From a virus, in the IMG/VR virus record IMGVR_UViG_3300049186_000011: a stretch of 46,474 nt of DNA; one strand, 5' to 3'. The position numbers and the translations under genes were made by a program. The notes under the pieces were generated by a model that saw nothing but the letters and a program-made list of their open reading frames with translations, did no database searches and had not been told where the DNA came from. Position 1 is the stretch's first letter; each line of letters opens with the position of its first letter. Shown here one piece after another: positions 1,854 to 46,474 of this stretch.

Positions 1854-2240
1854 TTACGCCTGGTTGGCGGCCCTGTCCCCGCTGAACATCTCCTGCGCGA
1901 CGTCGACGGCGTCGTCGATGACTGCGCGCCCCTCGGCGTTTGCCATCCGGTAGGCCGCTAATATTCGCAACTCCTGCGGCGTCTCGGCTGACATGCCCAG
2001 CACAGTTCCCGGGAGATTGCGCACACGGCGCAGACGCGTAGGCTCATCATTCGTGAAGAAGTCGGCAGCCTGAACGCTCAGCGCTTCAGCCAACGAGTAA
2101 AGCTTCTCTTCGCTTATCCACTGCTCCCCGCGCTCTATCCGAGAAAGATTGCCATCGGACAATCCTGCGCGCGCCTCCACATCGGCTAGCGTCATCCCAG
2201 CCGCCTTGCGGATCTGCCTGATTCTTTTCCCAACTTTCAT
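1854..2240 (-). CDS. CI-like repressor (XRE-family HTH, no S24 peptidase domain seen)
   Basis: MKVGKRIRQIRKAAGMTLADVEARAGLSDGNLSRIERGEQ... Divergent from the cro-like gene across a 103-bp operator region. An alternative upstream ATG lies at 2324. Confidence 0.8.
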   Translation of the reverse strand: MKVGKRIRQIRKAAGMTLADVEARAGLSDGNLSRIERGEQWISEEKLYSLAEALSVQAADFFTNDEPTRLRRVRNLPGTVLGMSAETPQELRILAAYRMANAEGRAVIDDAVDVAQEMFSGDRAANQA

Positions 2241-2343
2241 ACGTCCGATTGTCGGTAATAAATGCGGGTCACGCAAAGCGCCTTGCGCATTTTCATTTTG
2301 GGGTATAAAGTGCGTATTACGCATTTTTAATTCACTGGACACC
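2241..2343. promoter_or_regulatory. Divergent immunity promoter/operator region (PRM/PR-like)
   Basis: Palindrome TGCGTA-T-TACGCA (2311-2323). TGCG-N5-CGCA lies near 2263-2275. TATAAA at 2304-2309 with TTGCGC at 2283-2288. Shares ATTACGCATTTTTA and GCGCATTTT with the 610-650 region. Confidence 0.6.
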
Positions 2344-2565
2344 ATGAAATCTCCTCTTCGACAGATGCGCGAAAAGCGCGGAATCACTCTCCAGGTGCTC
2401 GCGTCGCAAGTAGGCAGCGACGTTGGCAACCTGAGCCGCATTGAGCGCGGCGTACAAAGCCCATCGCGAGAGCTGGCGGAGCGTATTTGCCAGCACTTTG
2501 GCAATGAGATTAATGAACTGCAGTTGTTCTATCCCGAGCGCTTCGCCAGCGCCGAAGCGAGCTAA
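2344..2565 (+). CDS. Cro-like XRE-family HTH regulator
   Basis: MKSPLRQMREKRGITLQVLASQVGSDVGNLSRIERGVQSPS... First gene of the rightward operon. Confidence 0.8.
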   Translation: MKSPLRQMREKRGITLQVLASQVGSDVGNLSRIERGVQSPSRELAERICQHFGNEINELQLFYPERFASAEAS

Positions 2566-2567
2566 CC

Positions 2568-2867
2568 ATGACCCCAGTATCCCCAGCAGACGCCGAGAAG
2601 GCACGCAAGTTCCACTCACTGGTATTGCAAAAAATCTCAGCGTTCGGCCAGCGCCAAATGGCAGAAGAACTCAAGACGTCCGAGTCGACTATCTCCCGAT
2701 ACGTCGCATCGGACCTTGAGCGCGCCTGCGGCGTTTTGGCTGTGCTGGGGCTGAAGATCGTGCCGACTGAGGTCCGCATGTACGAGCCGCGCAAGGTCGA
2801 ACTGCTGATTGAGCTTGCACGTGACCACTTGAACAACGCGACGCCCGAACAGTTCTCGTTCGACTGA
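2568..2867 (+). CDS. CII-like transcriptional activator
   Basis: 99 aa, placed directly after cro. The pattern LVLQKISAFGQRQMAEELKTSESTISRY...LAVLGL resembles lambda CII (KIAMLGTEKTAEAVGVDKSQISRW...LAVLEW). Confidence 0.55.
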   Translation: MTPVSPADAEKARKFHSLVLQKISAFGQRQMAEELKTSESTISRYVASDLERACGVLAVLGLKIVPTEVRMYEPRKVELLIELARDHLNNATPEQFSFD

Positions 2868-3491: not shown

Positions 3492-3685
3492 ATGCCCCCT
3501 TTCAGCCGGTTGCAGCGGCTTGCACAAATCAGCCCGGCCTTGCACAGCCTTGCACGCCGGCCGTCACCATTTCACCGGAGGCGCTGCAACTGCTGGCGCA
3601 GTTCGAGGCCCTGGCGCCCTACGGCAAGCGCGTGGCGCTGGTCATGATTGCGGGGTTGGTCAGGTTGCAGGCGGGGGCGGTGTGA
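3488..3685 (+). CDS. Hypothetical protein
   Basis: 65 aa. ATGA overlap with the upstream gene. Confidence 0.5.
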   Translation: MNAPFQPVAAACTNQPGLAQPCTPAVTISPEALQLLAQFEALAPYGKRVALVMIAGLVRLQAGAV

Positions 3686-4710
3686 CGTCCGATGTTTACT
3701 ACAACGAATACGAACCATATGCTGCCCAGTGGCTGCGCAACCTCATTGCAGCCGGCCACATTGCGCCTGGCGAAGTCGATGAACGGAGTATCGAAGATGT
3801 CCACCCTGACGACCTGCGCGGCTATACCCAATGCCACTTTTTCGCCGGGGTCGGCGTCTGGTCCTACGCACTTCGCCGTGCAGGCTGGCCAGATGACCGA
3901 CCTGTTTGGACCGGTTCCTGTCCGTGCCAACCTTTCAGCGCGGCAGGCAAAGGACTTGCGTTTGCTGACGAGCGGCACCTCTGGCCAGCTTTTGGGCACC
4001 TCATCGGCAAGCGCAAGCCTCCAGTCGTCCTTGGAGAGCAAGTTGCTAGCTCGCCTGTCGATGACTGGATCGACCTTGTACACGCTGACATGGAAGCCAT
4101 GGGTTACGCCTTCGGGAGTGTCCCGTTCCCGTCTGCGGGCGTCGGTGCGCCGCACATCCGCGACCGGAATTACTGGTGTGGAGTCGCCCAGGGCGACTCC
4201 ATCGGCAAGGGACTGGAAAAGCGCATCCGGGAGTCTGGATTTCCTAAACGGGCGCGCGGAGCAATCCAGGGGCAAGCCGTTGTCGGAACAGGTATTCAAG
4301 CTCTGCGGATGGATATCGCCCCAGGCAGCGGACGCCAACGGATCGGGCAAGAACCAGAATACCGCCAGCCTGGACAAGCAGGTAAAGGCAATAGCGGGCT
4401 GCCCAACGCCGCAAGCTATGGACGCGAGTGGCGGTGGGCAGGCCAAGCGAGCGATGGGCGAAACGCGGCACGGGTCGAATCTGAACGACTTTGCGATGCT
4501 AGCGAACAGCCCGGCCCGACGAACGGTTTCTGGAGAGATGCTGACTGGCTCGGATGCACAGATGGAAAGTGGCGGCCAGTTGAACCCGGCACATTCCCGC
4601 TGGCTCATGGGGCTACCAACCGCGTGGGACGACTGCGCGCCTACGGTAATGCGATCAACGCCGAAGCGGCAAAAGTCTGGATCGAAACGGTGATGGAGTG
4701 CATGCCATGA
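3682..4710 (+). CDS. DNA (cytosine-5) methyltransferase; uninterrupted frame-A ORF whose central part is probably not the selected frame (see finding)
   Basis: GTG 3682 overlaps the upstream stop. Motifs: [22 protein letters not shown] (motif I-like), PCQPFS (IV, 3922-3939), GEQV (VI), APHIRDR (VIII), GNAI (X-like, 4645-4656). Confidence 0.75.
4184..4693 (+). CDS. Alternative (+1) frame segment carrying C5-methyltransferase target-recognition and motif IX-like sequences
   Basis: Frame of ORF 3692..4693. ATPSARDWK (4193-4219), [23 protein letters not shown] (4400-4438), [17 protein letters not shown] (4580-4630). Hand-counted GC3 over 4184-4525 is about 73% here against about 58% in frame A. 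Confidence 0.5.
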
Positions 4711-4762
4711 ACGACTCACATCAACCACTGACGCCCGCTGATTGCGATCTGGAGTATCCGAA

Positions 4763-5299
4763 ATGAAACGCCAAGCCATCAGCAAAAAGGACCGGTTCGA
4801 GGTCTTCAAACGTGACGGGTTTTGCTGCCAATACTGCGGCGCCGTCCCGCCTAAGGCATTGCTTGAGGTTGATCATATTGACCCGGTATGTAATGGCGGC
4901 ACCAATGATCAGGACAACCTGATTACCGCCTGCTTCGACTGCAATAGAGGCAAAGGCGGCGATGCACTGACCGCCATTCCAAAGAGCCTCGCAGAGAAGG
5001 CTGCTGAAATCGCAGAGCGCGAGGCGCAGATCGCCGGGTATCGCAGCGTGATCCAGGCCCAACTGGATCGCATCGAGAATGACATGTGGCGTGTCGCTGA
5101 CGTCATTGTGATGCATGCCAGCACTCGTGGCATGCCAACTGACTGGCTTCGCTCAATCAAACACTTCCTGGGCCGGCTACCGCTGCACACCGTACTTGAT
5201 GCTGCGGAAATCGCCTGCGTCAACGGGCCACACGGCAACGCCGCCCGATTCCGCTACTTCTGCGGGATCTGCTGGAACCGAATTAAGGAATCAAAATAA
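4763..5299 (+). CDS. HNH endonuclease
   Basis: MKRQAISKKDRFEVFKRDGFCCQYCGAVPPKALLEVDHIDPVCNGGTNDQDNLITACFDCNRGKG, showing CxxC...H-N-H...CxxC. Confidence 0.9.
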   Translation: MKRQAISKKDRFEVFKRDGFCCQYCGAVPPKALLEVDHIDPVCNGGTNDQDNLITACFDCNRGKGGDALTAIPKSLAEKAAEIAEREAQIAGYRSVIQAQLDRIENDMWRVADVIVMHASTRGMPTDWLRSIKHFLGRLPLHTVLDAAEIACVNGPHGNAARFRYFCGICWNRIKESK

Positions 5300-6267
5300 T
5301 GGCCCGCGCTCGCAACATCAAACCCGGCTTCTACAAGAACGAGGATCTGGCTGAATGCTCGATCCTCGCGCGCCTTATATACCCTGGATTGTGGATGCTG
5401 GCTGACCGTGAAGGCCGCCTTGAAGACCGCCCCAAGAGGATCAAGGGCGAACTTCTGCCCTATGACAACGCCGATGTTGACAAGCTTTTGGGCGAGTTGG
5501 AACGGTGGGGATTGATCATTCGGTACGAGGCTGATGGCAATCGCTATATCGCCATTCCGAAGTTTTTGCAGCATCAGAACCCCCATCATCGCGAGGCCGA
5601 AAGCATCATTCCACCGCCAAATTGCCCAGGGTTAGATGATGTTGGTATGACGGTAAAGCCTAGGGCTTTGGTGTCATGCGAAGATGATGAGGCCCAAGAC
5701 ATGCCCGAGGAAAGCCCGGAAAAGGCACGTCCTAGCCGTGCTGAATCCCCTATCCTGAATCCTGAATCCCCTATCCTGAATCCTGAATCATCATCATCCG
5801 ATGATGCCGATGACGACCGCGACCCGGAAAACCTCAAGCCACCCCTTCCGCTTGCGCGGAATGTGCAAATCGCACTGCTGCTGCGCGCACAGCAAATCGA
5901 GGCTACATCGCAAAACCCCATCGTTTGCGTGACCTGGGCGCAAAACCCGGATGTCACGGACGAGGTGCTGAACCTCGCGATCTTGAAGGCCAAAAAGCAC
6001 CAGGGGGAAGGCAAATCAATCGCGGTCAAGTACCTGCTGCCCATCGTGGCCCAAATCCTTGCCGAGCAGTCAGCACCACCGCCCACTGCCGAGCCGCAGA
6101 AAGCCCGCGAGGACTGGTCGTGGTCGAAGTCGCACCAGGGCATCGAAAGCAAGGCCCGTGAACTGGGCATCAAAATCCGCCAGACGCACAGCTACGACGA
6201 CGTGAAGCAGTTGTGCTTTGACGAAATCCGCAAGCGCAAATCGCAATCACCCGGAGGTGCAGCATGA
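5299..6267 (+). CDS. Replication initiator/organizer-like protein (wHTH-like N-terminus, DnaD-like C-terminal region)
   Basis: MARARNIKPGFYKNEDLAECS...LWMLADREGRLEDRP...IAIPKFLQHQNPHHRE. C-terminal ...VTDEVLNLAILKAKKHQGEGKSIAVKYLLPIVAQIL. Contains internal iteron-like repeats. Confidence 0.5.
   Translation: MARARNIKPGFYKNEDLAECSILARLIYPGLWMLADREGRLEDRPKRIKGELLPYDNADVDKLLGELERWGLIIRYEADGNRYIAIPKFLQHQNPHHREAESIIPPPNCPGLDDVGMTVKPRALVSCEDDEAQDMPEESPEKARPSRAESPILNPESPILNPESSSSDDADDDRDPENLKPPLPLARNVQIALLLRAQQIEATSQNPIVCVTWAQNPDVTDEVLNLAILKAKKHQGEGKSIAVKYLLPIVAQILAEQSAPPPTAEPQKAREDWSWSKSHQGIESKARELGIKIRQTHSYDDVKQLCFDEIRKRKSQSPGGAA
5741..5806. repeat. Iteron-like repeats plus palindrome inside the replication gene (candidate ori)
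   Basis: The 21-bp unit ctgaatcccctatcctgaatc occurs 2.3 times (5741-5789), giving five CTGAATC heptamers. The palindrome catcat-ccg-atgatg follows at 5792-5806. Confidence 0.5.
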
Positions 6268-6969: not shown

Positions 6970-7749
6970 ATGACAACTGAGCGAGACCAATTCGCGCACC
7001 CGCGCGGCAATGCGCCAACTTTGATGCTGGGGGACTGCCTGACACGTATGCGTGAGATACCTTCCGATACCGTTGATCTGATCTTGGCTGACCTGCCATA
7101 TGGCGTCACACGTTGCGCATGGGATTCTGTGATCCCGCTTCCCTCGCTGTGGGAGCAATACTGCCGTGTGCTGCGGCCGCGCGGCGCTGTCGTACTGACC
7201 GCCATGCAGCCGTTCGCCAGCGCCCTGGTGATGAGTAAGCCAGATTGGTTTCTATACGACTGGGTTTGGGAAAAAGGCAACGCGACCGGCTTTTTGAACG
7301 CGAAGAGAGCACCACTGCGCGCGCATGAGTCAGTGTTGGTATTCGCGCCAAGGCAGCCAACTTACAACCCACAGTTCACGCACGGACATGCTCGCAAGAC
7401 GGCGAAGCGCAAGACCGTAAACAGCGAATGCTATGGCAAGGCGTTGAAGCTGGTCGACTATGACTCGACCAGTCGGTACCCGCGCAGCGTCCAGTTTTTC
7501 TCGAGCGACAAGCAGCGCGGCAACTTCCATCCGACGCAGAAGCCTATGAGATTGATGGAATACCTCATACGCACATATTCAAATCCTGGCGACCTGGTGC
7601 TGGACAATGCAATGGGTAGCGGCACTACGGGGGTAGCGTGCCGCAATACCGGGCGCGTGTTCATCGGCATTGAGAGCGACGCTGCCTATTTCGCCATCGC
7701 GCAACGACGCATTTTTCTACCACTTGAACTCGCAGTGGAGGCCGCATGA
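6970..7749 (+). CDS. DNA methyltransferase (N6-adenine/N4-cytosine type, beta-class motif order)
   Basis: LILADLPYG (DPPY-like) lies upstream of HPTQKP and DNAMGSGTTGVA (the FxGxG AdoMet motif). Confidence 0.9.
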   Translation: MTTERDQFAHPRGNAPTLMLGDCLTRMREIPSDTVDLILADLPYGVTRCAWDSVIPLPSLWEQYCRVLRPRGAVVLTAMQPFASALVMSKPDWFLYDWVWEKGNATGFLNAKRAPLRAHESVLVFAPRQPTYNPQFTHGHARKTAKRKTVNSECYGKALKLVDYDSTSRYPRSVQFFSSDKQRGNFHPTQKPMRLMEYLIRTYSNPGDLVLDNAMGSGTTGVACRNTGRVFIGIESDAAYFAIAQRRIFLPLELAVEAA

Positions 7750-8222
7750 ACATCCTGGCCATCGACATTGGCGCGCAGTGTGGCTGGGCGCTGGGGACGC
7801 GTGATGGCGCCGTGAAGGCCGGCAGCGAGTCGTTCGCCCCTGCCAAGCACGGCGGCCAGGGGCAGCGCTGGCTGGCTTTCCGGCAGTGGCTGACCGACAC
7901 CGGCCGCGCTGCGGGTGAGGTGCACGCCGTGTACTACGAGGACGTGAAGCGGCATGAGGGCGTGCTGGCTGCGCATGCGTACGGCGGCTTCCTGGCGATG
8001 CTTCAGGCGTGGTGCGCGGCCAATCGCATACCGATGTACGCCGTGGGCGTGGGCGCGATCAAGAAGCACTGGACGGGCAAGGGCAACGCGGACAAGACCG
8101 CGATGATCGATGAGGCCAAGCGCCGTGGCTACACGCCGGTTGACGATAACCATGCCGACGCTCTGGCCCTGCTGTCGTTCGCACGCCAGGCCGAAGGCAA
8201 GGCCGAAGCAGCACCGTTTTGA
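7746..8222 (+). CDS. RuvC-like Holliday junction resolvase
   Basis: MNILAIDIGAQCGWALG...VYYEDV...DDNHADALALL, carrying the RuvC-fold acidic motifs. Confidence 0.8.
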   Translation: MNILAIDIGAQCGWALGTRDGAVKAGSESFAPAKHGGQGQRWLAFRQWLTDTGRAAGEVHAVYYEDVKRHEGVLAAHAYGGFLAMLQAWCAANRIPMYAVGVGAIKKHWTGKGNADKTAMIDEAKRRGYTPVDDNHADALALLSFARQAEGKAEAAPF

Positions 8223-8237: not shown

Positions 8238-8336
8238 ATGTGGGCATTGACAATCGTGGCACTGGCCGGTGGCATCGTCGGCTGGGTTCTGTACGACATC
8301 ATCAGCGAAGTGCTGGGCATCTGGAGGGGTAAGTGA
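8238..8336 (+). CDS. Small membrane peptide (32 aa; below the ORF-track cutoff)
   Basis: GGGGGAGG precedes ATG 8238. MWALTIVALAGGIVGWVLYDIISEVLGIWRGK. Confidence 0.4.
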   Translation: MWALTIVALAGGIVGWVLYDIISEVLGIWRGK

Positions 8337-8734
8337 TAGGGGCAACCGCAAAGGCAGAGCAGTTCTTCACACGCTCCGCAAATGAATCGACAAAGGGCTC
8401 CCGCAAAGGCTTTGATCTGCTTGGCGGGGGTGAAGACCCTCTCTCGGTACTGACCACAGAGGAACAAAGGGACTCGCTGGTAGCCCGCTACAAGGGCCTG
8501 CAGAAGCAACTCGAAGCGGCAAAGGCAAAAGGCGACAAAGCGCTCATCAAATCAATCGGGTTCGATATAGCGAATACCTCTCGCGAGATAAACGGTTGCA
8601 GGCCAAAAACGCGATCCTCTCCAGAAGTTGGACAGTTCTTCATCGACATATGCCGAGAGCAAATGCCTAAGCTGCAATTCCACCAAATCATGGACGAGGC
8701 ATCGCGCCGCTGGAGGGAGAAAAATGGAAACTGA
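8333..8734 (+). CDS. Hypothetical protein, paralog A of 37618..38106 (first 33 codons nucleotide-identical)
   Basis: GTG start. MIGATAKAEQFFTRSANESTKGSRKGFDLLGGG... then diverged. The C-terminal FIDICREQMPKLQFHQIMDEASRR resembles the paralog's FMDVAVETLTKAQFSTLLKAARQR. Confidence 0.7.
   Translation: MIGATAKAEQFFTRSANESTKGSRKGFDLLGGGEDPLSVLTTEEQRDSLVARYKGLQKQLEAAKAKGDKALIKSIGFDIANTSREINGCRPKTRSSPEVGQFFIDICREQMPKLQFHQIMDEASRRWREKNGN
8334..8432. repeat. 99-bp perfect inverted repeat, copy 1 (partner 38007..38105)
   Basis: Checked base by base: tgataggggcaaccgcaaaggcagagcagttcttcacacgctccgcaaatgaatcgacaaagggctcccgcaaaggctttgatctgcttggcgggggtg. Confidence 0.95.
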
Positions 8735-8912: not shown

Positions 8913-9100
8913 TGGCGAACAAGAAAAATGTCAGGGTTTCCTGTTTCTCCGTCACCGGGGAACTCATTGCAAGCTATGAGTCCATGGCACTGGGGGCGCA
9001 GGCATCGGGGGTATCCCGCCAAGCGATATACAACGCCATCAAAAAGGGAACGTGCGTGAACGGGTTCCGGTGGCAGTACGAAAGCAAGAGGGGGCAGTGA
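8909..9100 (+). CDS. NUMOD1-like HTH DNA-binding protein
   Basis: 63 aa, ...FSVTGELIASYESMALGAQASGVSRQAIYNAIKKGTCVNGFRWQY. Confidence 0.45.
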   Translation: MMANKKNVRVSCFSVTGELIASYESMALGAQASGVSRQAIYNAIKKGTCVNGFRWQYESKRGQ

Positions 9101-9294
9101 TGGCAGTCCTAAACGCACACGCCAACGTGGTCTCGTTCTACGGCTACGCCCAACTGGCCAATGGCGGCATGAACATGCGCCAACTGGCCGGCATCGCCAA
9201 CACGCCAGAGCCGCGCCTAGCTCGTGCGCGTCGCATCGCCGCAGAGGTGCGCGCCCGTCACCCGGAAATGCAGGTGCGGAGGATCGCGCCATGA
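9100..9294 (+). CDS. Hypothetical protein
   Basis: ATG 9100 overlaps the upstream TGA. 64 aa. Confidence 0.5.
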   Translation: MAVLNAHANVVSFYGYAQLANGGMNMRQLAGIANTPEPRLARARRIAAEVRARHPEMQVRRIAP

Positions 9295-9473
9295 AAGCCC
9301 TACCTTTCCGCTTCTACCGCGACCCACTCGACGCACTCATCGCACAGGAGGAACAGACATGCAAAGGATGCCACTGGCGCCGCGTCATCGACCGCAACTT
9401 GCAGTGCACGAACCCGCGTGTGGCGGAAGCGGACACGGACAAGCGCTGCACGGACTACGAGGAACGCGAGTGA
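9291..9473 (+). CDS. Hypothetical small Cys-containing protein
   Basis: 60 aa, ...CKGCHWRRVIDRNLQCTNP... Confidence 0.5.
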   Translation: MKALPFRFYRDPLDALIAQEEQTCKGCHWRRVIDRNLQCTNPRVAEADTDKRCTDYEERE

Positions 9474-9847
9474 CACAACGCAAGGACATCGGCGCGCGGC
9501 TGGAGAACTGGGCCCGCTGGGCAACATCCAAGTCCAGGCGTGGGGCCGATAGCATGACTGGCGCTGTGTGCGAACGCATGCGGCGTGCGAGCCTGGGCGA
9601 TGTCTGGTCCGGTCACGAAGTGCGCGACGAGACTGACGACGCGGACGCATACCGCATCGAGCAAGGCATGCGCAAGTTGACCGTGCAGCACCGGCTGATG
9701 CTGCACTGGTGCTACATCGAGCAGGCACGGCCCGAGATTGTGTGCCGCAAGCTGTCGATTCCTGTGCGGCCAGCGAGTGAGTTTGTGGAGCGCTTCCGCG
9801 CGGCGCAGGCAGCGATTGAGGACATCGTAGACAACGGGAATCTGTAA
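9470..9847 (+). CDS. Putative late-gene regulator (antiterminator Q-like)
   Basis: GTG 9470 overlaps the upstream stop. ...IGARLENWARWA...LMLHWCYIEQARPEIVCRKLSIPVR... Last regulator-like gene before the late promoter and terminator. Confidence 0.4.
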   Translation: MTQRKDIGARLENWARWATSKSRRGADSMTGAVCERMRRASLGDVWSGHEVRDETDDADAYRIEQGMRKLTVQHRLMLHWCYIEQARPEIVCRKLSIPVRPASEFVERFRAAQAAIEDIVDNGNL

Positions 9848-10663: not shown

Positions 10664-11071
10664 ATGTCATACGACCCCGAGTTGGCCGTGCGGTTCTGCG
10701 CGGCCCTTGCGGACGGAAAGCGCAGCATTCGCGCTATCTGCGCGCAAAAAGGCATGCCGAGCAAGGCCACCATTTTCCGCTGGCTGCGGGATGTGCCCGA
10801 GTTCCTGACGATGTACGAGCAGGCGAAGGACGAGCAGGCTGACACGTTTGTCGATGAGGTCGTGTCTATCGCGGACGAGTGCAAGCCCGATGCTGACTCG
10901 ATCAAAAAGGCGAAGCTGCGCATCTATGCGCGCATCGAGGCGGCGCAGAAGATGAAGCCGAAGAAGTACGGCCAGAAATTGCAGTTGGCTGGCGACGGCG
11001 GTGGGCCAATCCAGGCGGTGACACGAGTCGAACTCGTGCCGATGCAGAAAAATGACAGCGGCAAGGATTGA
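10664..11071 (+). CDS. terS: Terminase small subunit
   Basis: 135 aa, directly upstream of and overlapping TerL. N-terminal HTH-like ...RSIRAICAQKGMPSKATIFRWL... Confidence 0.8.
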   Translation: MSYDPELAVRFCAALADGKRSIRAICAQKGMPSKATIFRWLRDVPEFLTMYEQAKDEQADTFVDEVVSIADECKPDADSIKKAKLRIYARIEAAQKMKPKKYGQKLQLAGDGGGPIQAVTRVELVPMQKNDSGKD

Positions 11072-12377
11072 GATACCGGATGCATTGATCCCGGTGTTTT
11101 CCGGTGATGCCGATGTACGCGGCGCACACGGTGGCCGTGGGTCAGCAAAAACCCGGTCATTTGCCAAAATGCTCGCCGTGCGCGGCTACATGTTCGGCAT
11201 GGCCGGCATCAAGGGGCAATTGCTGTGCGCGCGCCAGTTCATGAACTCGCTGGACGATTCCAGCTTGGAAGAGTGCAAGCGCGCGATTGAGGACGAGCCT
11301 TGGCTGTCGGCGTGGTACGAGATTGGCGACAAATACATCCGCAGCCGGTGCGGCAGCATCTGGTTTGCGTTCGCCGGCCTGGATCGCAACATCGCCAGCG
11401 TTAAATCCAAGGGCCGCATCCTGATTTGCTGGGTGGACGAGGCCGAGCCAGTGACGGATGAGGCATTCACGACGCTGATCCCGACGCTGCGCGAAGAAGG
11501 CGACGACTGGAACGCGGAACTGTGGGTGACGTGGAACCCGAAGCGCAAAAATGCAGCGGTTGAAAAGCGCTTCCGGCAATCCAGTGACCCGCGCGTCAAG
11601 GTCGTGCAGTTGAACTGGCGGGATAACCCCAAATTCCCGGCCATGCTAGAGCGGCAGCGGCAGCGCGATCTGCGCGAGCGGCCAGACCAGTATGAGCATA
11701 TTTGGGAGGGCGACTACGCCACGGTGGTCGAGGGCGCCTACTACGCCATGAGCCTGACGAAAGCGCGCCAGGAACAGCGCATCGGCCGTGTTCCTGCGGA
11801 TCCGCTGATGACAATCCGGCTGTATTGCGACATTGGCGGTACCGGCGCCAGGGCGGACGCATTTGCGATGTGGGCCGCGCAATTCATCGGCAAGGAAATC
11901 CGGGTACTCAACTATTACGAGCGCGTAGGCCAGCCCCTGGCGGCGCACATCGAGTGGATGCGCGAGCAGGGGTACACGACAGCACGCACACAGATATGGC
12001 TGCCACACGACGGCAGTACCCAAGACAAGGTTTTCGACGTGTCCTATGCCAGCGCTCTACGCGCCGCAGGCTACACCGTGACCGTCATTCCGAACCAGGG
12101 CAAGGGGGCCGCAAAAGCGCGCATTGAGGCGGCGCGGCGGCGATTCCCTGCCATGTGGTTCAACGCTGACACGACAGAACCAGGGCGCGATGCGCTGGGC
12201 TGGTATCACGAAAAGCGCGACGAAGTGCGCAATGTTGGGCTGGGACCGGACCACGACTGGTCCAGCCATGGCGCCGATGCATTCGGATTGATGTGCGTGG
12301 CATACGAAGAGCAGTCCTTCGAAGAAGACGAACACGAAGAAGACCAAACCGGTCGATCAACAACAGGCGGCTACTGA
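11052..12377 (+). CDS. terL: Terminase large subunit
   Basis: 441 aa. Walker-A-like GGRGSAKTRS. C-terminal nuclease-like WLPHDG...SSHGADAF. Confidence 0.9.
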   Translation: MTAARIEIPDALIPVFSGDADVRGAHGGRGSAKTRSFAKMLAVRGYMFGMAGIKGQLLCARQFMNSLDDSSLEECKRAIEDEPWLSAWYEIGDKYIRSRCGSIWFAFAGLDRNIASVKSKGRILICWVDEAEPVTDEAFTTLIPTLREEGDDWNAELWVTWNPKRKNAAVEKRFRQSSDPRVKVVQLNWRDNPKFPAMLERQRQRDLRERPDQYEHIWEGDYATVVEGAYYAMSLTKARQEQRIGRVPADPLMTIRLYCDIGGTGARADAFAMWAAQFIGKEIRVLNYYERVGQPLAAHIEWMREQGYTTARTQIWLPHDGSTQDKVFDVSYASALRAAGYTVTVIPNQGKGAAKARIEAARRRFPAMWFNADTTEPGRDALGWYHEKRDEVRNVGLGPDHDWSSHGADAFGLMCVAYEEQSFEEDEHEEDQTGRSTTGGY

Positions 12378-27527: not shown

Positions 27528-27597
27528 AGCCGTAGATCACAGCGAGGACGAAGAAAACGCCCAGCTTAGCCAGCTTGTATAGGATGTAGGCGCTCAT
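27469..27597 (-). CDS. Small single-TM peptide translationally coupled to the Mnt-like gene (42 aa; below the ORF-track cutoff)
   Basis: ATGA start/stop overlap at 27594-27597. MSAYILYKLAKLGVFFVLAVIYGFIRARAERRKSSQHSEARD. Convergently overlaps the 3' end of 26007..27527 by 59 nt. Confidence 0.35.
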   Translation of the reverse strand: MSAYILYKLAKLGVFFVLAVIYGFIRARAERRKSSQHSEARD

Positions 27598-27872
27598 TGG
27601 TCATTCGTCTGAATAGGTTCAACATCCTCTTGCACGTTAAGCAAGGCTTCGTACATGGCAAAAAAATATGGGCGGTTGCGCTCGCTCAGGCGACCGATCA
27701 TTTCATCAAAGCCGGAAACGACGACGGGCGACAGGTTGAAAGACTGCTCAAGGCGCTGAATGATCTCGGCATGCAGCGATCGCCCGTCCAGTTTGGCCGC
27801 ATCCTCCAAACGAGTGCGCAACTCCGGCGGCATCCGAAGTGGGTATGGTGCAATGTGATGTCGATCTGTCAT
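27594..27872 (-). CDS. Mnt/Arc-family ribbon-helix-helix repressor (Mnt-like, 92 aa)
   Basis: MTDRHHIAPYPLRMPPELRTRLEDAAKLDGRSLHAEIIQRLEQS plus a C-terminal extension. Divergent from the Arc-like gene. Confidence 0.7.
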   Translation of the reverse strand: MTDRHHIAPYPLRMPPELRTRLEDAAKLDGRSLHAEIIQRLEQSFNLSPVVVSGFDEMIGRLSERNRPYFFAMYEALLNVQEDVEPIQTNDQ

Positions 27873-27975
27873 ATGCGCATTGTGGATGGCATTCTGATTC
27901 TTTTCAATGAGTCTACTTGCTATCCACAATTGTGGATGCTAATATGAATCCACTTTGGTATCGAAAGGATTAAAA
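27873..27975. promoter_or_regulatory. Divergent operator/promoter region of the immI-like module
   Basis: Perfect 16-bp palindrome ATCCACAATTGTGGAT (27922-27937). Additional half-sites TTGTGGAT (27880-27887) and GAATCCAC (27947-27954). Confidence 0.6.
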
Positions 27976-28137
27976 ATGGCTCAGACAAGAACGCCGTACC
28001 CGCTCAGGCTCCCTGAGCAGTTGCGCGAATGGATGCAACAGCAGGCTGATGCGAACAGTCGGTCTCTGCAGGGCGAGTTGATCCATAGATTGCAACAAAG
28101 CAAGGCAAACGAGGAGGCAAAACATGCGAAACACTGA
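27976..28137 (+). CDS. Arc-like ribbon-helix-helix repressor (53 aa)
   Basis: MAQTRTPYPLRLPEQLREWMQQQADANSRSLQGELIHRLQQS... compares with P22 Arc ...FNLRWPREVLDLVRKVAEENGRSVNSEIYQRVMES. Confidence 0.7.
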   Translation: MAQTRTPYPLRLPEQLREWMQQQADANSRSLQGELIHRLQQSKANEEAKHAKH

Positions 28138-28669
28138 ACTTCAGCTCCCGGTTGTCCACCCTGGTCAGATGGTCACTATTGACGGCGATCATCTGGTGAC
28201 TGATTCGCGGATCGTGGCAAAGGTCTTTGGCAAGGCGCACAAAAACGTCCTTCGAATAATTGATGAAATGAGGGTGAGCAGTAATCCTGAAATCGCAGAG
28301 CATTCGCGGCTCAATTTTGAGCCGTGCATATTTGACTATCGAGCAGGTAAAGGTGGGCTTCGTGCAGCCCCCGGCTATCGCATGACGAAGGATGGGTTAT
28401 CTGAACTTGCGATGAGCTTCACTGGGGACCGCGCGCGCATCTGCCGTATCCGGTTCATTGCGGCTTTTAACGCTATGGCCGAGCAGCTCGCTAACGGAGA
28501 GAAAAATCTGTGGCAGAAGATGCAAGCCTTAATCGCCAAGGAAACGGCGTCGCAGTTGAAAGCCTCGTTCGGCTCGCACCTCATGCTGGATCGCAAGCGG
28601 GAAATCCGGCCACTGCGTGAGGAGCGCCAGGAACTGGAAACAGCCATTCAGCCGTCATTGCTCAATTGA
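28124..28669 (+). CDS. Rha-family phage regulatory protein / antirepressor
   Basis: ...HLVTDSRIVAKVFGKAHKNVLRIIDEM... (pRha-type N-domain). Sits immediately downstream of the Arc-like gene. Confidence 0.7.
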   Translation: MRNTELQLPVVHPGQMVTIDGDHLVTDSRIVAKVFGKAHKNVLRIIDEMRVSSNPEIAEHSRLNFEPCIFDYRAGKGGLRAAPGYRMTKDGLSELAMSFTGDRARICRIRFIAAFNAMAEQLANGEKNLWQKMQALIAKETASQLKASFGSHLMLDRKREIRPLREERQELETAIQPSLLN

Positions 28670-35073: not shown

Positions 35074-35591
35074 TGGACCCGATCACCATTGCGATGGGCT
35101 TGGCCCAGTTCGCCCCCGGCATCATCAAGCTACTGACCGGCAGCGACAAAGCTGCAGACGTTGCTGCCGACGTGATCGGGATCGCGCAGAAAGCCACCGG
35201 CGCGGCGACAGGCGCCGACGCACTGGACAAACTGCGCGCTGACCCGACAGCCGTGATGAACTTCCAGGCAGCCATGGCAGCGCAGCAAGCCGACCTCGAT
35301 AAGGCTTATCTGGCCGACATGGCAGACGCACGGGGGCGCGATGTGGAGTTAGCCAAAGCCGGTCACACCAACCATCGCGCTAACGCCATGGCCGCTTGCG
35401 CCGTCGCCCTGGTGCTGTTCTGTCTGCTGGTGGTGGTCTGGAAAGCGGAGTTGAACGAGTTTGCAAAAGGTGGCGTGACGCTCATCTTGGGGCGGGCCCT
35501 GGGCTGGGTAGAGCAGGCGTTTTCGTTCGAATTTGGCTCCACGCGGGCCAGTAAGGCAAAGGATGACACGATCAAGGCACTCAGCCGCTAG
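35073..35591 (+). CDS. 3-TM holin-like protein (GTA-type holin family-like)
   Basis: 172 aa. MDPITIAMGLAQFAPGIIKLLTGSDKAADVAADVIG... with C-terminal TM segments. Confidence 0.5.
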   Translation: MDPITIAMGLAQFAPGIIKLLTGSDKAADVAADVIGIAQKATGAATGADALDKLRADPTAVMNFQAAMAAQQADLDKAYLADMADARGRDVELAKAGHTNHRANAMAACAVALVLFCLLVVVWKAELNEFAKGGVTLILGRALGWVEQAFSFEFGSTRASKAKDDTIKALSR

Positions 35592-36577
35592 AGCCTCTTC
35601 GCAATTTCATGCGCGGATTCGTTGTAATAAATCTGCAACATCCGCAAATCCTTGTGCCCCACCATCCGCGCCAATTCCAGCACGTTCAGCTTTTTGGCCA
35701 GGCGCGTAATTGCCTCGTGCCGGGTATCGTGGAAAGTCAGCCCCTCAATCCCGGCGCGCTCCTTCGCCTTGCGATATAGCGCATCCAGGCTGGCAGTCGT
35801 GATGCCGAAGCATGCATCGCCAGGATCACCCTTTGGCAGTTGGCCCAGCAATTCGACCGCGCGCGCCGACAATGGAACATCCCGTTTGCTGCCGTTCTTA
35901 GTCATTGGCAGATGCGCTACGCTGCCCGTGATGTCTCCCCAGGTCAGCCCGCATATCTCCCCTGCCCGCATTGCCGTCTCGATGGCGAACAGGAATGCCG
36001 CCGCCACCGCCTCCGACTTGTTGCTCACCGACTCCGCATACCCCAATGCGAGACAAATCCGCTCGATCTCGTCCTCGCTGATGCGCCGGTCGCGTGGAGG
36101 TGAGCCCTTAGGTCGTCGCACGTCAGTAGTCGGGCTCTCCTTGATCCACTTCCATTCCCTGCGCGCTGTGGTGAAAATGTGCGACAACAGATTTAGTTCC
36201 CGGTTGACGGTGGCGCCGGCTACCGTTTTCAGTCGCTCATCCCGCCACTTCCCCAGCATTTCGGATGTCAACTCGCTTACACGGATGTCACCAAGCACTT
36301 TTCCACTGATTACGTGGCTCTGGATGGCGTTCAGCCGAATTTCCTCCCATCGCCCGCCGCGCTTGTGCGTAGAAACTTCCGTCAAGTAGCGATCAAACGC
36401 ATCTTTGCACGTCTTGTCCGTATCAATGCCAGTGTCGGCCATGCGCCGCAACTGCGCCTCTCGCTCGCCAGCCCAAACCTGGGCCTCGCCCTTAGTCGCG
36501 AACAGCTTTGATTCGCGCACGTCCTTCACCTGGATTTGTGCGCGCCAACTATCCCGGTATTTCTTGATTGATGCCAT
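35588..36577 (-). CDS. int: Tyrosine recombinase / phage integrase
   Basis: 329 aa. ...AMRAGEICGLTW..., HDTRHEAITRLAK..., LARMVGHKDLRMLQIYY, matching the R...HxxR...Y catalytic signature. Confidence 0.95.
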   Translation of the reverse strand: MASIKKYRDSWRAQIQVKDVRESKLFATKGEAQVWAGEREAQLRRMADTGIDTDKTCKDAFDRYLTEVSTHKRGGRWEEIRLNAIQSHVISGKVLGDIRVSELTSEMLGKWRDERLKTVAGATVNRELNLLSHIFTTARREWKWIKESPTTDVRRPKGSPPRDRRISEDEIERICLALGYAESVSNKSEAVAAAFLFAIETAMRAGEICGLTWGDITGSVAHLPMTKNGSKRDVPLSARAVELLGQLPKGDPGDACFGITTASLDALYRKAKERAGIEGLTFHDTRHEAITRLAKKLNVLELARMVGHKDLRMLQIYYNESAHEIAKRL

Positions 36578-36825
36578 AGCCCGTCCTCGCGTTGTGCGGG
36601 AATTATGCGGGATTTGTGCGGGATACGGGAAGTTAATTCATCGCACAATAACGCAAAAGCCACTGTTGTGCGCGGGAGAAGTTTTGATATAAGTGCCTGT
36701 TTTATATAGAAAACTATTCAAAAACAGGCACTTACTTTGAATGCTGGGAGTGCTCCGAGCCGGAATCGCATCCCACAGCAGAATGCGGGTTTCCGACTGG
36801 TGTGCGGGATTTTTGCGGGAACTGA
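36578..36825. promoter_or_regulatory. attP-like region with arm-type direct repeats flanking an AT-rich inverted-repeat core
   Basis: TGCGGGA occurs at 36594, 36605 and 36616 (11-bp phasing) and at 36802 and 36813, with degenerate copies at 36623, 36667 and 36783. A 13-bp inverted repeat AAGTGCCTGTTTT (36690-36702) / AAAACAGGCACTT (36720-36732) has a 17-nt AT-rich spacer. Confidence 0.55.
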
Positions 36826-37385: not shown

Positions 37386-37621
37386 TTGCGCTCCTTGCAC
37401 ACTGCGTCATTGCAGTATGGCGGCTGGCCGTCGCAGGTAAGGCAGGGCTTTCGCTCCTTGTACCCCTGCGGGATGACGACAACTGGCGTTCCGGTCAAGT
37501 CCGACAGCACGGCGCCCAGTGTTTGGCAGACGCTAATGATGTCGCCCGGCTCGACTGCGGATTTCCGCACCAGCGTGTTTGCCGCTTCGAGGAATGCGCG
37601 ACGGTTGGCGACGGCGCTCAT
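37382..37621 (-). CDS. Hypothetical protein
   Basis: 79 aa. ATGA coupling at 37618-37621. Confidence 0.55.
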   Translation of the reverse strand: MSAVANRRAFLEAANTLVRKSAVEPGDIISVCQTLGAVLSDLTGTPVVVIPQGYKERKPCLTCDGQPPYCNDAVCKERK

Positions 37622-38106
37622 TTCGCCTCCCCGGTACGCTGGGCGGCGTCGATGCCAAGCTCCAAAGCACGCTGTCGGGCTGCCTTTAGCAGTGTGCTGA
37701 ATTGAGCTTTTGTCAGCGTCTCTACTGCGACGTCCATAAAGCAGCGCTCCAGCGTTTCCTGCCTTATGGGCGAAGGTGTTTGCGCTTTTAGTTTTGTCAA
37801 TTCGGCAGCTATCACACCCTGGCGAATTTTCAGGTCTTTGATGCGCTGCGTGGCATCAAAGAAAGCGCGATTCTTCTTTTTCGAATTAGCAAACTTGATT
37901 GCATCAAGTTCTTTGGCTTCCTGAACAAGCAATTGCAGTTCAGCGATCAGTGCCTTTCGTTGATTCTGCAGTTTTTCGTCTAGAGAAAGAATGGACGTCG
38001 GATTTACACCCCCGCCAAGCAGATCAAAGCCTTTGCGGGAGCCCTTTGTCGATTCATTTGCGGAGCGTGTGAAGAACTGCTCTGCCTTTGCGGTTGCCCC
38101 TATCAT
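37618..38106 (-). CDS. Hypothetical protein, paralog B of 8333..8734
   Basis: 162 aa. The first 33 codons are nucleotide-identical to 8334-8432. Coiled-coil-like middle region. Confidence 0.7.
   Translation of the reverse strand: MIGATAKAEQFFTRSANESTKGSRKGFDLLGGGVNPTSILSLDEKLQNQRKALIAELQLLVQEAKELDAIKFANSKKKNRAFFDATQRIKDLKIRQGVIAAELTKLKAQTPSPIRQETLERCFMDVAVETLTKAQFSTLLKAARQRALELGIDAAQRTGEAK
38007..38105. repeat. 99-bp perfect inverted repeat, copy 2 (partner 8334..8432)
   Basis: The reverse complement equals 8334-8432 exactly. Identity stops at both edges: GTG versus ATG start, and aagaccc versus taaatcc. Confidence 0.95.
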
Positions 38107-43566: not shown

Positions 43567-44448
43567 TTAGCCCACCAGTTCCGCGCGGCGCTCTTGGTAC
43601 AGCGCGTTCAGCTTGGCCTGCTCGGTGCTGTCGAACATTTCGCGGATTTCGTCCGCGATCAGGTCAAGAACGTCTGGGTCTTGGCACGACTGGATGCGGC
43701 GGAAGATGGTGTCGTAGGAACTGGACGCATTTTCTTGCGCTGCAGCCGATTGCTGTGCCGGTTCGGAAATCAGAGTTTCGACTTGCGCCGGGATGGGCTC
43801 AGCGGCGCGCAGGGATTCCGTGGTTACGGTGTACGAGCCATCCTGGTCGATATCAATAACATCAGCCATTTCATCAGCCGTGGACAGGCCCATGGACAGC
43901 TCAGGTGCGTAAGCGCGGGTCCACCAGCTTGCGGCGCGATACATCAGCATTTGCTGCGGGATGGACTTCCATTTGCTGCCGTTTTTGCCATACCAACCTT
44001 CTTGCTTTGCGATGGCGATTGTTACGTCCGCGCCTACAAGACGCTCGCCGGTCGCCTTCTCGATTGCCCACGCCCGGCAACCCCAGTCATCGGTGCCCTG
44101 GGCACCAAAGAACTCATAGCGCAGCTTCGAGAAGTCGCCACAGGTATTCACGGTGGCAATCAGGAACTGCGCCGACCAAGTCGGCTTGCCATGAACCACG
44201 ACCAGGTTCTGCATCACCATCAACGGGTCAGCACCGACGCGCTGAGCCATGTTCAGGGCAATAACGCAGTTGGGCAGATTGCCCTGATACTGCTGCGGGA
44301 CCAGTGTCGAACTTGCCAATAATTTCGCGGCGCGCTGCGCCAATTCAAAGCCCTGGGAGTCGGTCAGGCCAACGGAGTAGCGCTGTGGGGCCTCATGGGC
44401 TGGGGCTCGCAGATTTGCAAGCGTGGTGCTGCTAGTTGGTGCGGTCAT
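43567..44448 (-). CDS. recT: RecT-family single-strand annealing protein
   Basis: GGAG precedes ATG 44448. ...LASSTLVPQQYQGNLPNCVIALNMAQRVGADPLMVMQNLVVVHGKPTWSAQFLI... Confidence 0.85.
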   Translation of the reverse strand: MTAPTSSTTLANLRAPAHEAPQRYSVGLTDSQGFELAQRAAKLLASSTLVPQQYQGNLPNCVIALNMAQRVGADPLMVMQNLVVVHGKPTWSAQFLIATVNTCGDFSKLRYEFFGAQGTDDWGCRAWAIEKATGERLVGADVTIAIAKQEGWYGKNGSKWKSIPQQMLMYRAASWWTRAYAPELSMGLSTADEMADVIDIDQDGSYTVTTESLRAAEPIPAQVETLISEPAQQSAAAQENASSSYDTIFRRIQSCQDPDVLDLIADEIREMFDSTEQAKLNALYQERRAELVG

Positions 44449-44450
44449 GT

Positions 44451-45248
44451 TTATTTTCTCCAAAAACAGGTGTTGTAGTTCGGGCAGTACGTTTGGTGGC
44501 ACATCATTGAGTTCGGATTCCCCCAGGCCGGGATGTCGCCATGGACCACTTTGGCAGCCATCGCCAGCAGCCCGGTATGTTCGTCATCGCCCAGCAGCAC
44601 GTCCTTGGCGCCAACGATTTCCCCTGTACCGATGCGCTGCTTGTCTGGTGTCAGGTTGGTTTGCAGCCCAATGATCACGGCCGGCGCGTCCATGCGCGTA
44701 CCAGTGGCGGCTTCCGCCAGCAGTTCATAAACCCCTTGCTGTGCGGCGTGCCCCTTGGTTTTCGCCTTGCCATCAGTGCCCACGGCTTGCTTGCCGCTCT
44801 TGATGTCGCGGATGCCAAATTGATCATCGACGCGCGCAATGCGGTCCGTTGTGCCGGTCAAGATGATGTTGAGGTCAGATATCAGCAGGCTCTCTACGGA
44901 CGCCTCTACCGCCACGTAGTCATGCTTAGGCGCCTCTTCCAGGCAGTACTTGCGAGTGAGCGTGCGGGCGATGCTTTCCGCCTTATCCCTCTCGCCCTCC
45001 CAATCTGTTTCGTCGCGGGGCATGCGTACACTTTCAACGGCGCAGTCCTCCGCCGCCGACAGGCTTGGCGACTGACCGAGAACGCGCTCAGTGTCGTACA
45101 GTGCCGTGCCGGCGTGCAGCGCAGTCCCGAGTGCGGCCTTGCCGCTCTGCGGGACGCGCCGACCCTCCAGGTGGATCGCAATCCAGCGCGCCGGGCAATC
45201 AAACAAACTCCCGAACGAACTGGCGCGAATCGTGATGGGTTGACGCAT
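44451..45248 (-). CDS. PD-(D/E)XK exonuclease (RecB/Cas4-like, with C-terminal Cys cluster)
   Basis: GGAGGGG precedes ATG 45248. ...TGTTDRIARVDDQFGIRDIKSGK... (D...D/ExK). C-terminus ...MMCHQTYCPNYNTC. Confidence 0.75.
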   Translation of the reverse strand: MRQPITIRASSFGSLFDCPARWIAIHLEGRRVPQSGKAALGTALHAGTALYDTERVLGQSPSLSAAEDCAVESVRMPRDETDWEGERDKAESIARTLTRKYCLEEAPKHDYVAVEASVESLLISDLNIILTGTTDRIARVDDQFGIRDIKSGKQAVGTDGKAKTKGHAAQQGVYELLAEAATGTRMDAPAVIIGLQTNLTPDKQRIGTGEIVGAKDVLLGDDEHTGLLAMAAKVVHGDIPAWGNPNSMMCHQTYCPNYNTCFWRK

Positions 45249-45251
45249 GAT

Positions 45252-45353
45252 CAAAACCCCTCCGTCCACACGTGCCATGCACGCCGGAATGCCGCGCGCC
45301 GCGTGTAGCCGACGCGCAGGTAGTTTCTGTAAAGTTGGAACAGGCCGCGCATG
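45252..45353 (-). CDS. Possible small basic peptide (33 aa)
   Basis: MRGLFQLYRNYLRVGYTRRAAFRRAWHVWTEGF fills the gap between flanking genes. Confidence 0.25.
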
Positions 45354-45354
45354 A

Positions 45355-45570
45355 TCAGCTCCGCTCCAGTTGACAGCGGCGCACAGCCAGTTGCACCTGA
45401 TAGATGCACTCGCGCGCTTCCAGTTCGCCCAGTTCAGCGCGCAACTCACGTAGCCGGCGCAGTTCGTTTTCGGAGTGGCGAAACTGCAGCCGGACCAACA
45501 TCAGCCGAAATGGCAGCAGCACTTTACGCACCGGGCGCTTGATGACGCGCAGGATAGTAGCGGCGCCCAT
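45355..45570 (-). CDS. Hypothetical protein
   Basis: Start placed at the second ATG (45570), just after the upstream stop at 45573. Confidence 0.5.
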   Translation of the reverse strand: MGAATILRVIKRPVRKVLLPFRLMLVRLQFRHSENELRRLRELRAELGELEARECIYQVQLAVRRCQLERS

Positions 45571-46059: not shown

Positions 46060-46474
46060 TTACTCTTCGATGGCCGCAACAAATTCGCCGTTTGCACTCA
46101 GCATGTAATACGTGTCCGGCTCAATGCCGTTTTCACCGACTTTGCTGGCGCGAATATGCACGATTTCGCCGTCATCGTTGCGGTACACGAGGCAAATAGC
46201 GCAGCCAGCGGCGGCACGCGCTCGGCCAGACCAGCCAGTTGACAGTGCGACGCTTGCCTTGCCGGTGGCGGAGGCAGCACCCCGGGCGCCGGTGGCGGAG
46301 GCAGCACCCTGGTAGCCGGTGGCGGAGGCAGCACCCCGGGCGCCGGTGGCGGAGGCAGCACCCTGGTAGCCGGTGGCGGAGGCAGCACCCCGGGCGCCGG
46401 TGGCGGAGGCAGCACCCTGGTAGCCGGTGGCGGAGGCAGCACCCCGGGCGCCGGTGGCGGAGGCAGCACCCTGG
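46060..46474 (-). CDS. C-terminal part of the repeat protein that starts at 560 (wraps the junction)
   Basis: The frame G(A/Y)(R/Q)GAASAT continues into ...GKASVALSTGWSGRARAAAGCAICLVYRNDDGEIVHIRASKVGENGIEPDTYYMLSANGEFVAAIEE, with TAA at 46060-46062. It has no internal Met, so it is absent from the ORF track. Confidence 0.8.
   Translation of the reverse strand, partial: QGAASATGARGAASATGYQGAASATGARGAASATGYQGAASATGARGAASATGYQGAASATGARGAASATGKASVALSTGWSGRARAAAGCAICLVYRNDDGEIVHIRASKVGENGIEPDTYYMLSANGEFVAAIEE
46261..46474. repeat. 27-bp tandem repeat, 7 full units plus partials, alternating R,Y,R,Y,R,Y,R,Y(partial)
   Basis: Direct reading. Same unit as 1-173. The last 72 nt equal the first 72 nt of the window. 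Confidence 0.95.

Follow-up and report, generated by a model that had tools for sequence, protein, structure and literature searches.

A perfect 99-bp inverted repeat shared by two diverged early genes of a temperate phage, the probable footprint of recent gene conversion

How can two genes of one phage, with bodies that have diverged as far as those of any two members of their family, begin with the same 99 nucleotides in opposite orientation? The question is raised by the IMG/VR virus record IMGVR_UViG_3300049186_000011, whose whole length of 46,474 nucleotides is referred to here as the window. An initial annotation, made from the letters alone, had described a perfect 99-bp inverted repeat at the 5' ends of two diverged paralogs, here genes A and B, and had named three possible causes, a recent event of conversion or recombination, selection acting directly on the DNA or RNA, and an assembly chimera, with a genome-isomer switch as the consequence. 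The description is exact, as the coordinates, the boundaries and the divergence of the gene bodies were all confirmed, while the proposed causes and the consequence fared differently.

When both strands are read, the two 99-nt arms are exact reverse complements of one another. The start codons (GTG in gene A, ATG in gene B) are identical from their second base onwards, and the identity ends with the first base of codon 34 (GAA in gene A, GTA in gene B); upstream of the arms the A and B sequences are unrelated, and downstream of the 99 nt their similarity drops to background. A repeat search returned arms at 8334-8439 and 38000-38105, with a length of 106 nt, 97% complementarity and 29,560 nt between them, and this 8334/38105 inverted pair is the sole long dispersed repeat of the circular 46.4-kb genome. 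By simple arithmetic, the chance expectation for an exact 99-nt inverted match in 46 kb is ~1e-50. The repeat is real and more than chance, and for the origin of the block we preferred a null derived from relatives as the more relevant one.

The ends of the window overlap by 72 nt inside a 27-nt tandem array, implying that the contig is circular and that the window is a complete, circularly assembled phage genome. Table 1 maps the genome from our own Pfam and PHROG scans and from the Pfam annotation of this phage in another assembly. Judged from its gene content, the phage is lambdoid, a P22-like temperate phage with a canonical map: it carries int, a leftward recombination operon, a repressor/cro pair, replication and late genes, and virion and immI-like genes of the P22 type. 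The repeat arms divide the circle into a 29.6-kb arc with the late genes and int and a 16.8-kb arc with both early operons and the immunity region. RecT, the exonuclease and int, all named in the initial annotation, were found again by the matches given in Table 1 (for the RecT-like protein, the Pfam RecT match of 0.00041 and 20.4 bits is under the 24-bit cutoff), and the virion genes that it had placed inside 8433-38006 lie there according to the Pfam-annotated genes of the other assembly. For Q, the late promoter, the lysis genes and xis, comparison with Pfam, PHROG and PDB found nothing that would confirm them; the protein that had been called Q (125 aa, 9470-9847, + strand) matched only phrog_19609, of unknown function, and nothing in Pfam or PDB, and its N-terminal LENWARW stretch is reminiscent of Q proteins of the phage 21/82 type.

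Table 1. Positions of the repeat arms, the two paralogs and the mapped genes in the window
Feature	Position	Strand	Remarks
Repressor-like HTH protein	1854-2345	-	
Cro-like protein	2365-2565	+	
CII-like protein	2568-2867	+	weak match
C5 DNA methylase	3682-4710	+	
HNH endonuclease	4763-5299	+	
Replication initiator	5299-6267	+	
N6/N4 DNA methylase	6970-7749	+	
RuvC-like Holliday-junction resolvase	7746..8222	+	phrog_159 8.5e-22; ~110 nt upstream of gene A
32-aa ORF	8238-8336	+	between RuvC-like gene and gene A
Gene A	8333..8734	+	133 aa, short-type member of an uncharacterised phage early-protein family
Inverted-repeat arm 1	8334..8432	+	gene A: GTG bases 2-3, codons 2-33, codon 34 base 1
Six small genes	between gene A and terminase	+	
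Sf6-type small terminase	10664-11071	+	
Large terminase (Terminase_3)	11052-12377	+	
Likely portal (724-aa gene)	downstream of terminase	+	from position only
Capsid, P22-type stabilisation protein (Phage_stabilise)	downstream of terminase	+	
Arc / Arc-like / pRha region	27594-28669		
Tyrosine integrase	35588..36577	-	Pfam 8.6e-25; end of leftward operon, inside 29.6-kb arc
Gene B	37618..38106	-	162 aa, long-type member, same family as gene A
Inverted-repeat arm 2	38007..38105	-	exact reverse complement of arm 1; same codons in gene B
RecT-like single-strand annealing protein	43567..44502	-	phrog_561 1.2e-82
PD-(D/E)XK exonuclease, partner of RecT-like protein	44451..45449	-	Pfam 5.7e-17

Several other features of the map were observed along the way. 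The rightward early operon contains two DNA methyltransferases (C5 and N6/N4) and an HNH endonuclease (3682-5299, 6970-7749), and a P22 immI-like cluster of Arc-domain, divergent Arc-like and pRha-domain (antirepressor-type) genes sits among the virion genes at 27594-28669. Within the replication initiator gene (5741-5789, + strand) there is a perfect 21-nt direct repeat, CTGAATCCCCTATCCTGAATC, in 2.3 copies with a 7-nt sub-period, which, we presume, could be origin iterons as in lambda O. Just upstream of the integrase gene, between int and an 87-aa gene, three tandem 11-nt units (TTGTGCGGGAT, 36592-36624) could be arm-type binding sites of a recombinase or excisionase, or part of attP. The 27-nt array at the window ends (1-172 and 46261-46474, coding on the - strand) belongs to the gene of a DUF7666-domain protein in the leftward operon and translates into the 9-residue repeats SATGYQGAA / SATGARGAA; because the cut in the window falls within this array, its true copy number is uncertain.

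The reading frames A and B look like real genes. Gene A lies late in the rightward early operon, after the RuvC-like resolvase gene and the short ORF, whose sequence looks hydrophobic, and 4 nt before its GTG at 8333 there is a Shine-Dalgarno sequence, GGAGGGG. Gene B is a member of the leftward early operon, where it stands four genes before the integrase gene, and AAAGGGGA precedes its ATG at 38106. Both Shine-Dalgarno sequences are outside the repeat, each gene having its own. A word-indexed search of 5.8 billion proteins recovered 25 relatives of A and B, and an exhaustive profile search gave 468 family representatives at E<=1e-3. Both proteins align over their full length with this family, in which a conserved N-terminus is followed by a variable helical middle and a conserved C-terminal motif, F.D.C(R)E..T...F. 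In the alignment, residues 1-33 are the most conserved segment (MIGATAKAEQF..RSGSESTKGSRKGF.LLGGG), with the motif M-I-G-A-T-A-K-A-E-Q-F..R....S-T-K-G-S-R-K-G-F.L-L-G-G-G, and from codon 34 onwards the sequence carries the signature of its type, E-D/N-P for the short type and V-N-P for the long type. The body of gene A is ~50% identical to three short-type members (P0005, P0008 and P0010), and gene B belongs to the long type, which is marked by two insertions.

Taken over their whole length, A and B are 42% identical (BLASTP). After residue 33 the identity is 23% (23 of 100 aligned residues), and the codon-aligned DNA of the bodies is 41% identical, a divergence as large as between any two family members. 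Bodies as diverged as these cannot stem from a recent duplication. The function of the family is not indicated by homology: Pfam and PHROG searches of A and B found no family, none of the relatives checked had a Pfam domain above threshold, the PDB sequence search with the A/B family gave nothing significant, and Foldseek comparison of an AlphaFold2 model with PDB and BFVD gave nothing below E 0.1. The family was not found in GTDB genomes, and the genes adjoining A and B are not conserved beside family members in relatives. In the AlphaFold2 model (pLDDT 79), residues 1-33 are predicted to be disordered (pLDDT <50) and the rest forms four confident helices. Distant members of the family keep the helical body with a different and shorter tail, and two representatives of 263-266 aa have two bodies in tandem (the proteins concerned are P0088, P0089, P0111, P0094 and P0103), suggesting that tail and body are separable modules. 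The 33-residue tail probably docks onto a partner.

A conserved protein segment does not by itself lead to identical DNA, and the relatives provide the measure of what is ordinary. In the seven relatives with DNA, 58-72 of the 99 nucleotides are identical to the block and 27-41 differ, with the peptide kept. At positions with the same residue in five relatives, the codon is the same as in the block in 45 of 115 cases, a rate at which a run of 32 consecutive identical codons has a likelihood of ~1e-13. For the 36 pairs that can be formed from nine family genes, A and B are identical at 98/99 nucleotides, the sole difference being the first base of the start codon, and the other 35 pairs at 57-80/99. 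Of 53 other motif-bearing N-termini of the family, the one closest to the block in protein sequence agrees in 30/33 residues, so A and B share derived residues (F12, A16, N17 and D28). Thus, the block stands at 98/99 nucleotides, synonymous sites included, against bodies identical at 41% of nucleotides and 23% of residues, and its divergence among relatives is ordinary, so that neither constraint on the protein nor a conserved element of DNA or RNA accounts for the identity. The option of recent conversion or recombination in the initial annotation is thereby supported, A-B being the lone outlier among the pairs while the bodies are fully diverged.

The relatives also bear on the age of the repeat. 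In each contig or locus they have a single family gene, which sits in the rightward operon at a distance of three or four genes from the repressor. As the related genomes carry a single family gene, the inverted repeat is not conserved in position and is not a conserved architectural feature; it is lineage-specific and young. The exact 51-nt core of the repeat had no match in the IMG/VR and GTDB genome collections, and against GenBank phages blastn gave only a short match, to a neighbouring gene.

Together, these observations make it probable that the 99-bp block was left by a recent gene conversion, ectopic and homeologous, between anciently diverged paralogs. The event would have been a non-reciprocal exchange between oppositely oriented paralogs, one in each of the two divergent early operons of a single temperate phage, by which the block was copied from one locus to the other locus of the same genome; as the two loci belong to one genome, the identity does not come from allelic exchange with another phage. 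The limits of the tract coincide with the edges of pre-existing homology. Nucleotide similarity within the family is concentrated in codons 1-11, the STKGSRKGF codons and the LLGGG codons, and collapses at codon 34. The tract would be confined to the conserved N-terminal module because this is the only stretch with enough nucleotide similarity for pairing, and would stop at the start codon on the 5' side and at the type-specific sequence on the 3' side. With no homology upstream of the start codon and the collapse at codon 34, the abrupt ends fit a homology-limited exchange. The exchange was probably catalysed by the RecT-like/exonuclease pair of the phage or by host RecA, with the RuvC-like resolvase as a possible recombination helper. 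The identity would then be a historical by-product rather than a device, although the perfect 99-bp inverted repeat that resulted could now support rare inversion.

The donor was, if anything, the long-type (B) copy, as residues F12, T13 and A16 of the block lean weakly in that direction; the best matches to the block are 30/33 in the long type and 28-29/33 in the short type, a comparison that is not decisive. A search for a close relative with unconverted A and B found none, so the conversion is read from one lineage. The two blocks had probably been no more than 60-80% similar before conversion, and perfect stretches of at least 23 nt would have been few or absent; at such low similarity the exchange would have been inefficient or driven by microhomology. 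RecT/RecE, RecT (Rac, phi80), Erf and Red-beta recombine inverted repeats with 78% identity inside lambda, and they do so ~20-fold better than RecA on identical and ~100-fold better on diverged substrates; intragenic exchanges of ~100 bp are reported to be frequent, and pairing requires a segment of at least 23-27 bp (PMC3945230; PMC2327257).

The same pattern would also be expected from continuing flip-flop between the two arms or from an inversion with two offset joints. In the first case, recurrent recombination by RecT and exonuclease or by RecA would keep the arms identical and maintain two genome isomers, in which the early arc of 16.8 kb is connected in one or the other orientation to the 29.6-kb arc carrying the late genes and int, and the bodies of the paralogs swap their expression contexts. 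The geometry that the initial annotation had seen is correct, in that inverting 8433-38006 swaps the gene bodies and exchanges the downstream partners of the early operons. The rightward operon would then read into the body of B, small genes and int, and the leftward operon into the body of A, small genes, terminase and virion genes; all genes would stay co-directional with an early operon, and proteins A and B would be unchanged. A perfect 99-bp repeat exceeds the reported minimal pairing segments, and in a phage with genes for RecT and an exonuclease it should lead to some low-rate recombination. In addition, inverted repeats on both sides of pL can recombine to give inversions that lambda tolerates (PMC2327257), cyanophage stocks contain coexisting isomers of a segment of ~30 kb that lies between inverted repeats (bioRxiv 10.64898/2026.02.14.705889), and conversion-homogenised inverted paralogs drive a flip/flop region in yeast (PMC9731477).

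The assemblies do not show a switch of this kind. The same phage, with 100% identical DNA, is present in at least four other samples (five in all). One contig (L001, JGI 3300049908) is 100% identical over 1,643 nt and reads through U_B-repeat-B, and a 46,391-nt contig (JGI 3300071358) reads through U_A-repeat-A in the gene order of the window. The latter starts at the first codon of gene B and ends after exactly 33 B codons, having the repeat at both ends, as expected if the 99-mer is a branching node of the assembly graph. Logan contigs assembled at k=31 (SRR35218428, SRR35220073) end exactly 30 nt into the repeat, whether they enter it from U_A, U_B, the A body or the B body (the end point of contig L018 follows from arithmetic), which is the signature of a true repeat; because they break inside it, they are uninformative on orientation. 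All contigs reading through a copy, that is, the two full-length ones and L001, have canonical junctions, and no hybrid junction occurs in contigs with A, B or their four flanking proteins, where minor isomers are invisible. Apart from the question of orientation, the 46,391-nt assembly is, by arithmetic and with terminal overlaps removed, ~108 nt or four 27-nt units shorter than the window, and contig L014 (JGI 3300049908) is identical to the window over 2.1 kb except for 27 nt missing in frame at 9128-9154, which shortens the product of gene 9100-9294 (+) from 64 to 55 aa; this is the only polymorphism among the five samples.

Two full-length assemblies from different samples thus share the same canonical order, L001 confirms the junction at B, and neither full-length contig is broken at the A copy, which would argue against comparable amounts of two isomers. 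Flip-flop also has to contend with the relatives, which are without a second copy, with the shortness of 99 bp compared with cyanophage repeats of 400-700 nt and the 4-kb repeat of yeast, and with the gene order of the alternative isomer, in which terminase and virion genes would follow a leftward operon of the recombination/int type, not a known lambdoid layout. We therefore regard active flip-flop as unlikely, and the isomer switch of the initial annotation has no support, although its geometry is sound. Its suggestion that such a switch would be new for lambdoid phages is overstated in view of the lambda pL inversion assay (PMC2327257, PMC3945230) and the cyanophage isomers (bioRxiv 10.64898/2026.02.14.705889).

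A comparison with these systems shows how far the resemblance goes. Engineered lambda with inverted repeats on either side of pL is in standard use for measuring recombination by the inversion that results (PMC2327257, PMC3945230), with inverted IS10 or oxa repeats as substrates (PMC2327257). The assay (Martinsohn et al. 2008, PMC2327257; De Paepe et al. 2014, PMC3945230) resembles the present case in having diverged, inverted homologous genes in a lambdoid genome, a phage annealing protein with an exonuclease, hybrid genes with short shared tracts, and frequent exchanges of ~100 bp. It differs in that engineered genes of ~800 bp with 0-22% divergence flank a small pL-N segment and recombinants are selected, whereas the phage studied here has natural paralogs whose similarity before the event was probably 60-80% over only ~100 nt, arms separated by 29.6 kb one way round the circle and by 16.8 kb the other way, and no product of inversion seen. 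The inverted Centroid gene pairs on either side of the flip/flop region of yeast chromosome XIV (PMC9731477) are likewise partly homogenised and form a potential inversion substrate; there, however, the repeat is ~4 kb long, homogenisation is recurrent and both orientations are found across species (PMC9731477), as opposed to one 99-bp tract in one orientation. The Anabaena cyanophages A-1(L), N-1, A-Lf14 and relatives have a ~30-kb invertible region (bioRxiv 10.64898/2026.02.14.705889), similar to the present genome in being a tailed-phage segment of ~30 kb bounded by inverted repeats, but their repeats of 400-700 nt are conserved in position across nine phages and both isomers were seen by PCR and read mapping, and in all three respects the present phage differs.

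Site-specific inversion and allelic mosaicism offer two further points of reference. As in the G segment of Mu and the C segment of P1 (Gin/Cin/Hin systems), the inverted repeats lie in coding sequence, and inversion would swap the 3' parts of genes behind a constant 5' part. Gin/Cin/Hin crossover sites are ~26-34 bp long and the segments a few kb, and those systems switch the C-termini of tail fibres, not early genes. The only site-specific recombinase found is the tyrosine integrase; no Resolvase or serine invertase domain is present among the Pfam-annotated genes outside ~18.9-27.4 kb. According to the modular theory, conserved boundary or linker sequences are the recombination joints of mosaic lambdoid phages. 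Here too, a short conserved stretch at a gene or module boundary is the place of exchange, but mosaic joints arise by allelic exchange between different phages, and the exchange considered here involves two non-allelic loci of one genome.

In the second case, the present arrangement would be the product of one past inversion between the diverged paralogs, with two non-reciprocal joints at different positions. The lambda pL assay provides the closest experimental parallel, as 81% of Red-promoted recombinants between inverted genes with 22% divergence had non-symmetrical joints (PMC2327257), and joints of this type leave a shared tract between them. A past inversion nevertheless requires a non-canonical ancestral gene order or two successive inversions, making conversion the more parsimonious account, and the tract fills the whole region of homology, where joints cannot be placed. 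We consider such a history rather improbable.

The nucleotide sequence itself might also be under selection at both loci, as a shared translation-initiation region, an RNA structure, a small-RNA target or a protein-binding site. That every synonymous site is identical and that the identity begins beside the start codon would fit such a role, but the relatives conserve the peptide and not the nucleotides, and the ribosome-binding sites are outside the repeat and different in A and B. An Rfam search of the block region gave no match and there are no tRNAs; the predicted folding of the region is no better than that of shuffled sequence (z +0.7 to +0.9); and neither repeat region contains a promoter-like site. 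Only one terminator-like match touches a repeat arm (38011-37993), a weak match to the consensus, with counts within shuffle expectation. Selection on DNA or RNA, which the initial annotation had listed, is accordingly disfavoured and appears very unlikely. Least credible of all is an assembly artefact by which one of the block copies entered the contig in error: the window does come from a metagenome assembly, and its repeat is near common k-mer sizes, but the assemblies of other samples contain the same junctions (L001 at B, the JGI 3300071358 contig at A) and the same repeat node, the Logan contigs from two runs break as expected for a true repeat, and both A and B need a family N-terminus in any case.

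Gene conversion thus remains the preferred reading of the 99-bp block, and the feature is a natural instance of a process already shown experimentally, not a new process. From the lambda experiments, phage annealing recombinases were predicted to shuffle short, diverged stretches, and their low-fidelity recombination is tolerated by phage genomes because internal repeats are rare. If read as conversion, the block provides a clean natural case of exchange between two loci of a single genome, with a datable footprint of ~100 bp and limits that are precise to the base, and the conversion would have created an internal inverted repeat of the kind that phage genomes usually lack. The analysis also draws attention to an uncharacterised family of early phage proteins whose most conserved part is a predicted disordered tail of 33 residues. 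Interest in the locus would grow if read-level data showed both orientations, and the phage is well placed to show whether a RecT-encoding phage tolerates, loses or uses an inverted repeat of 99 bp.
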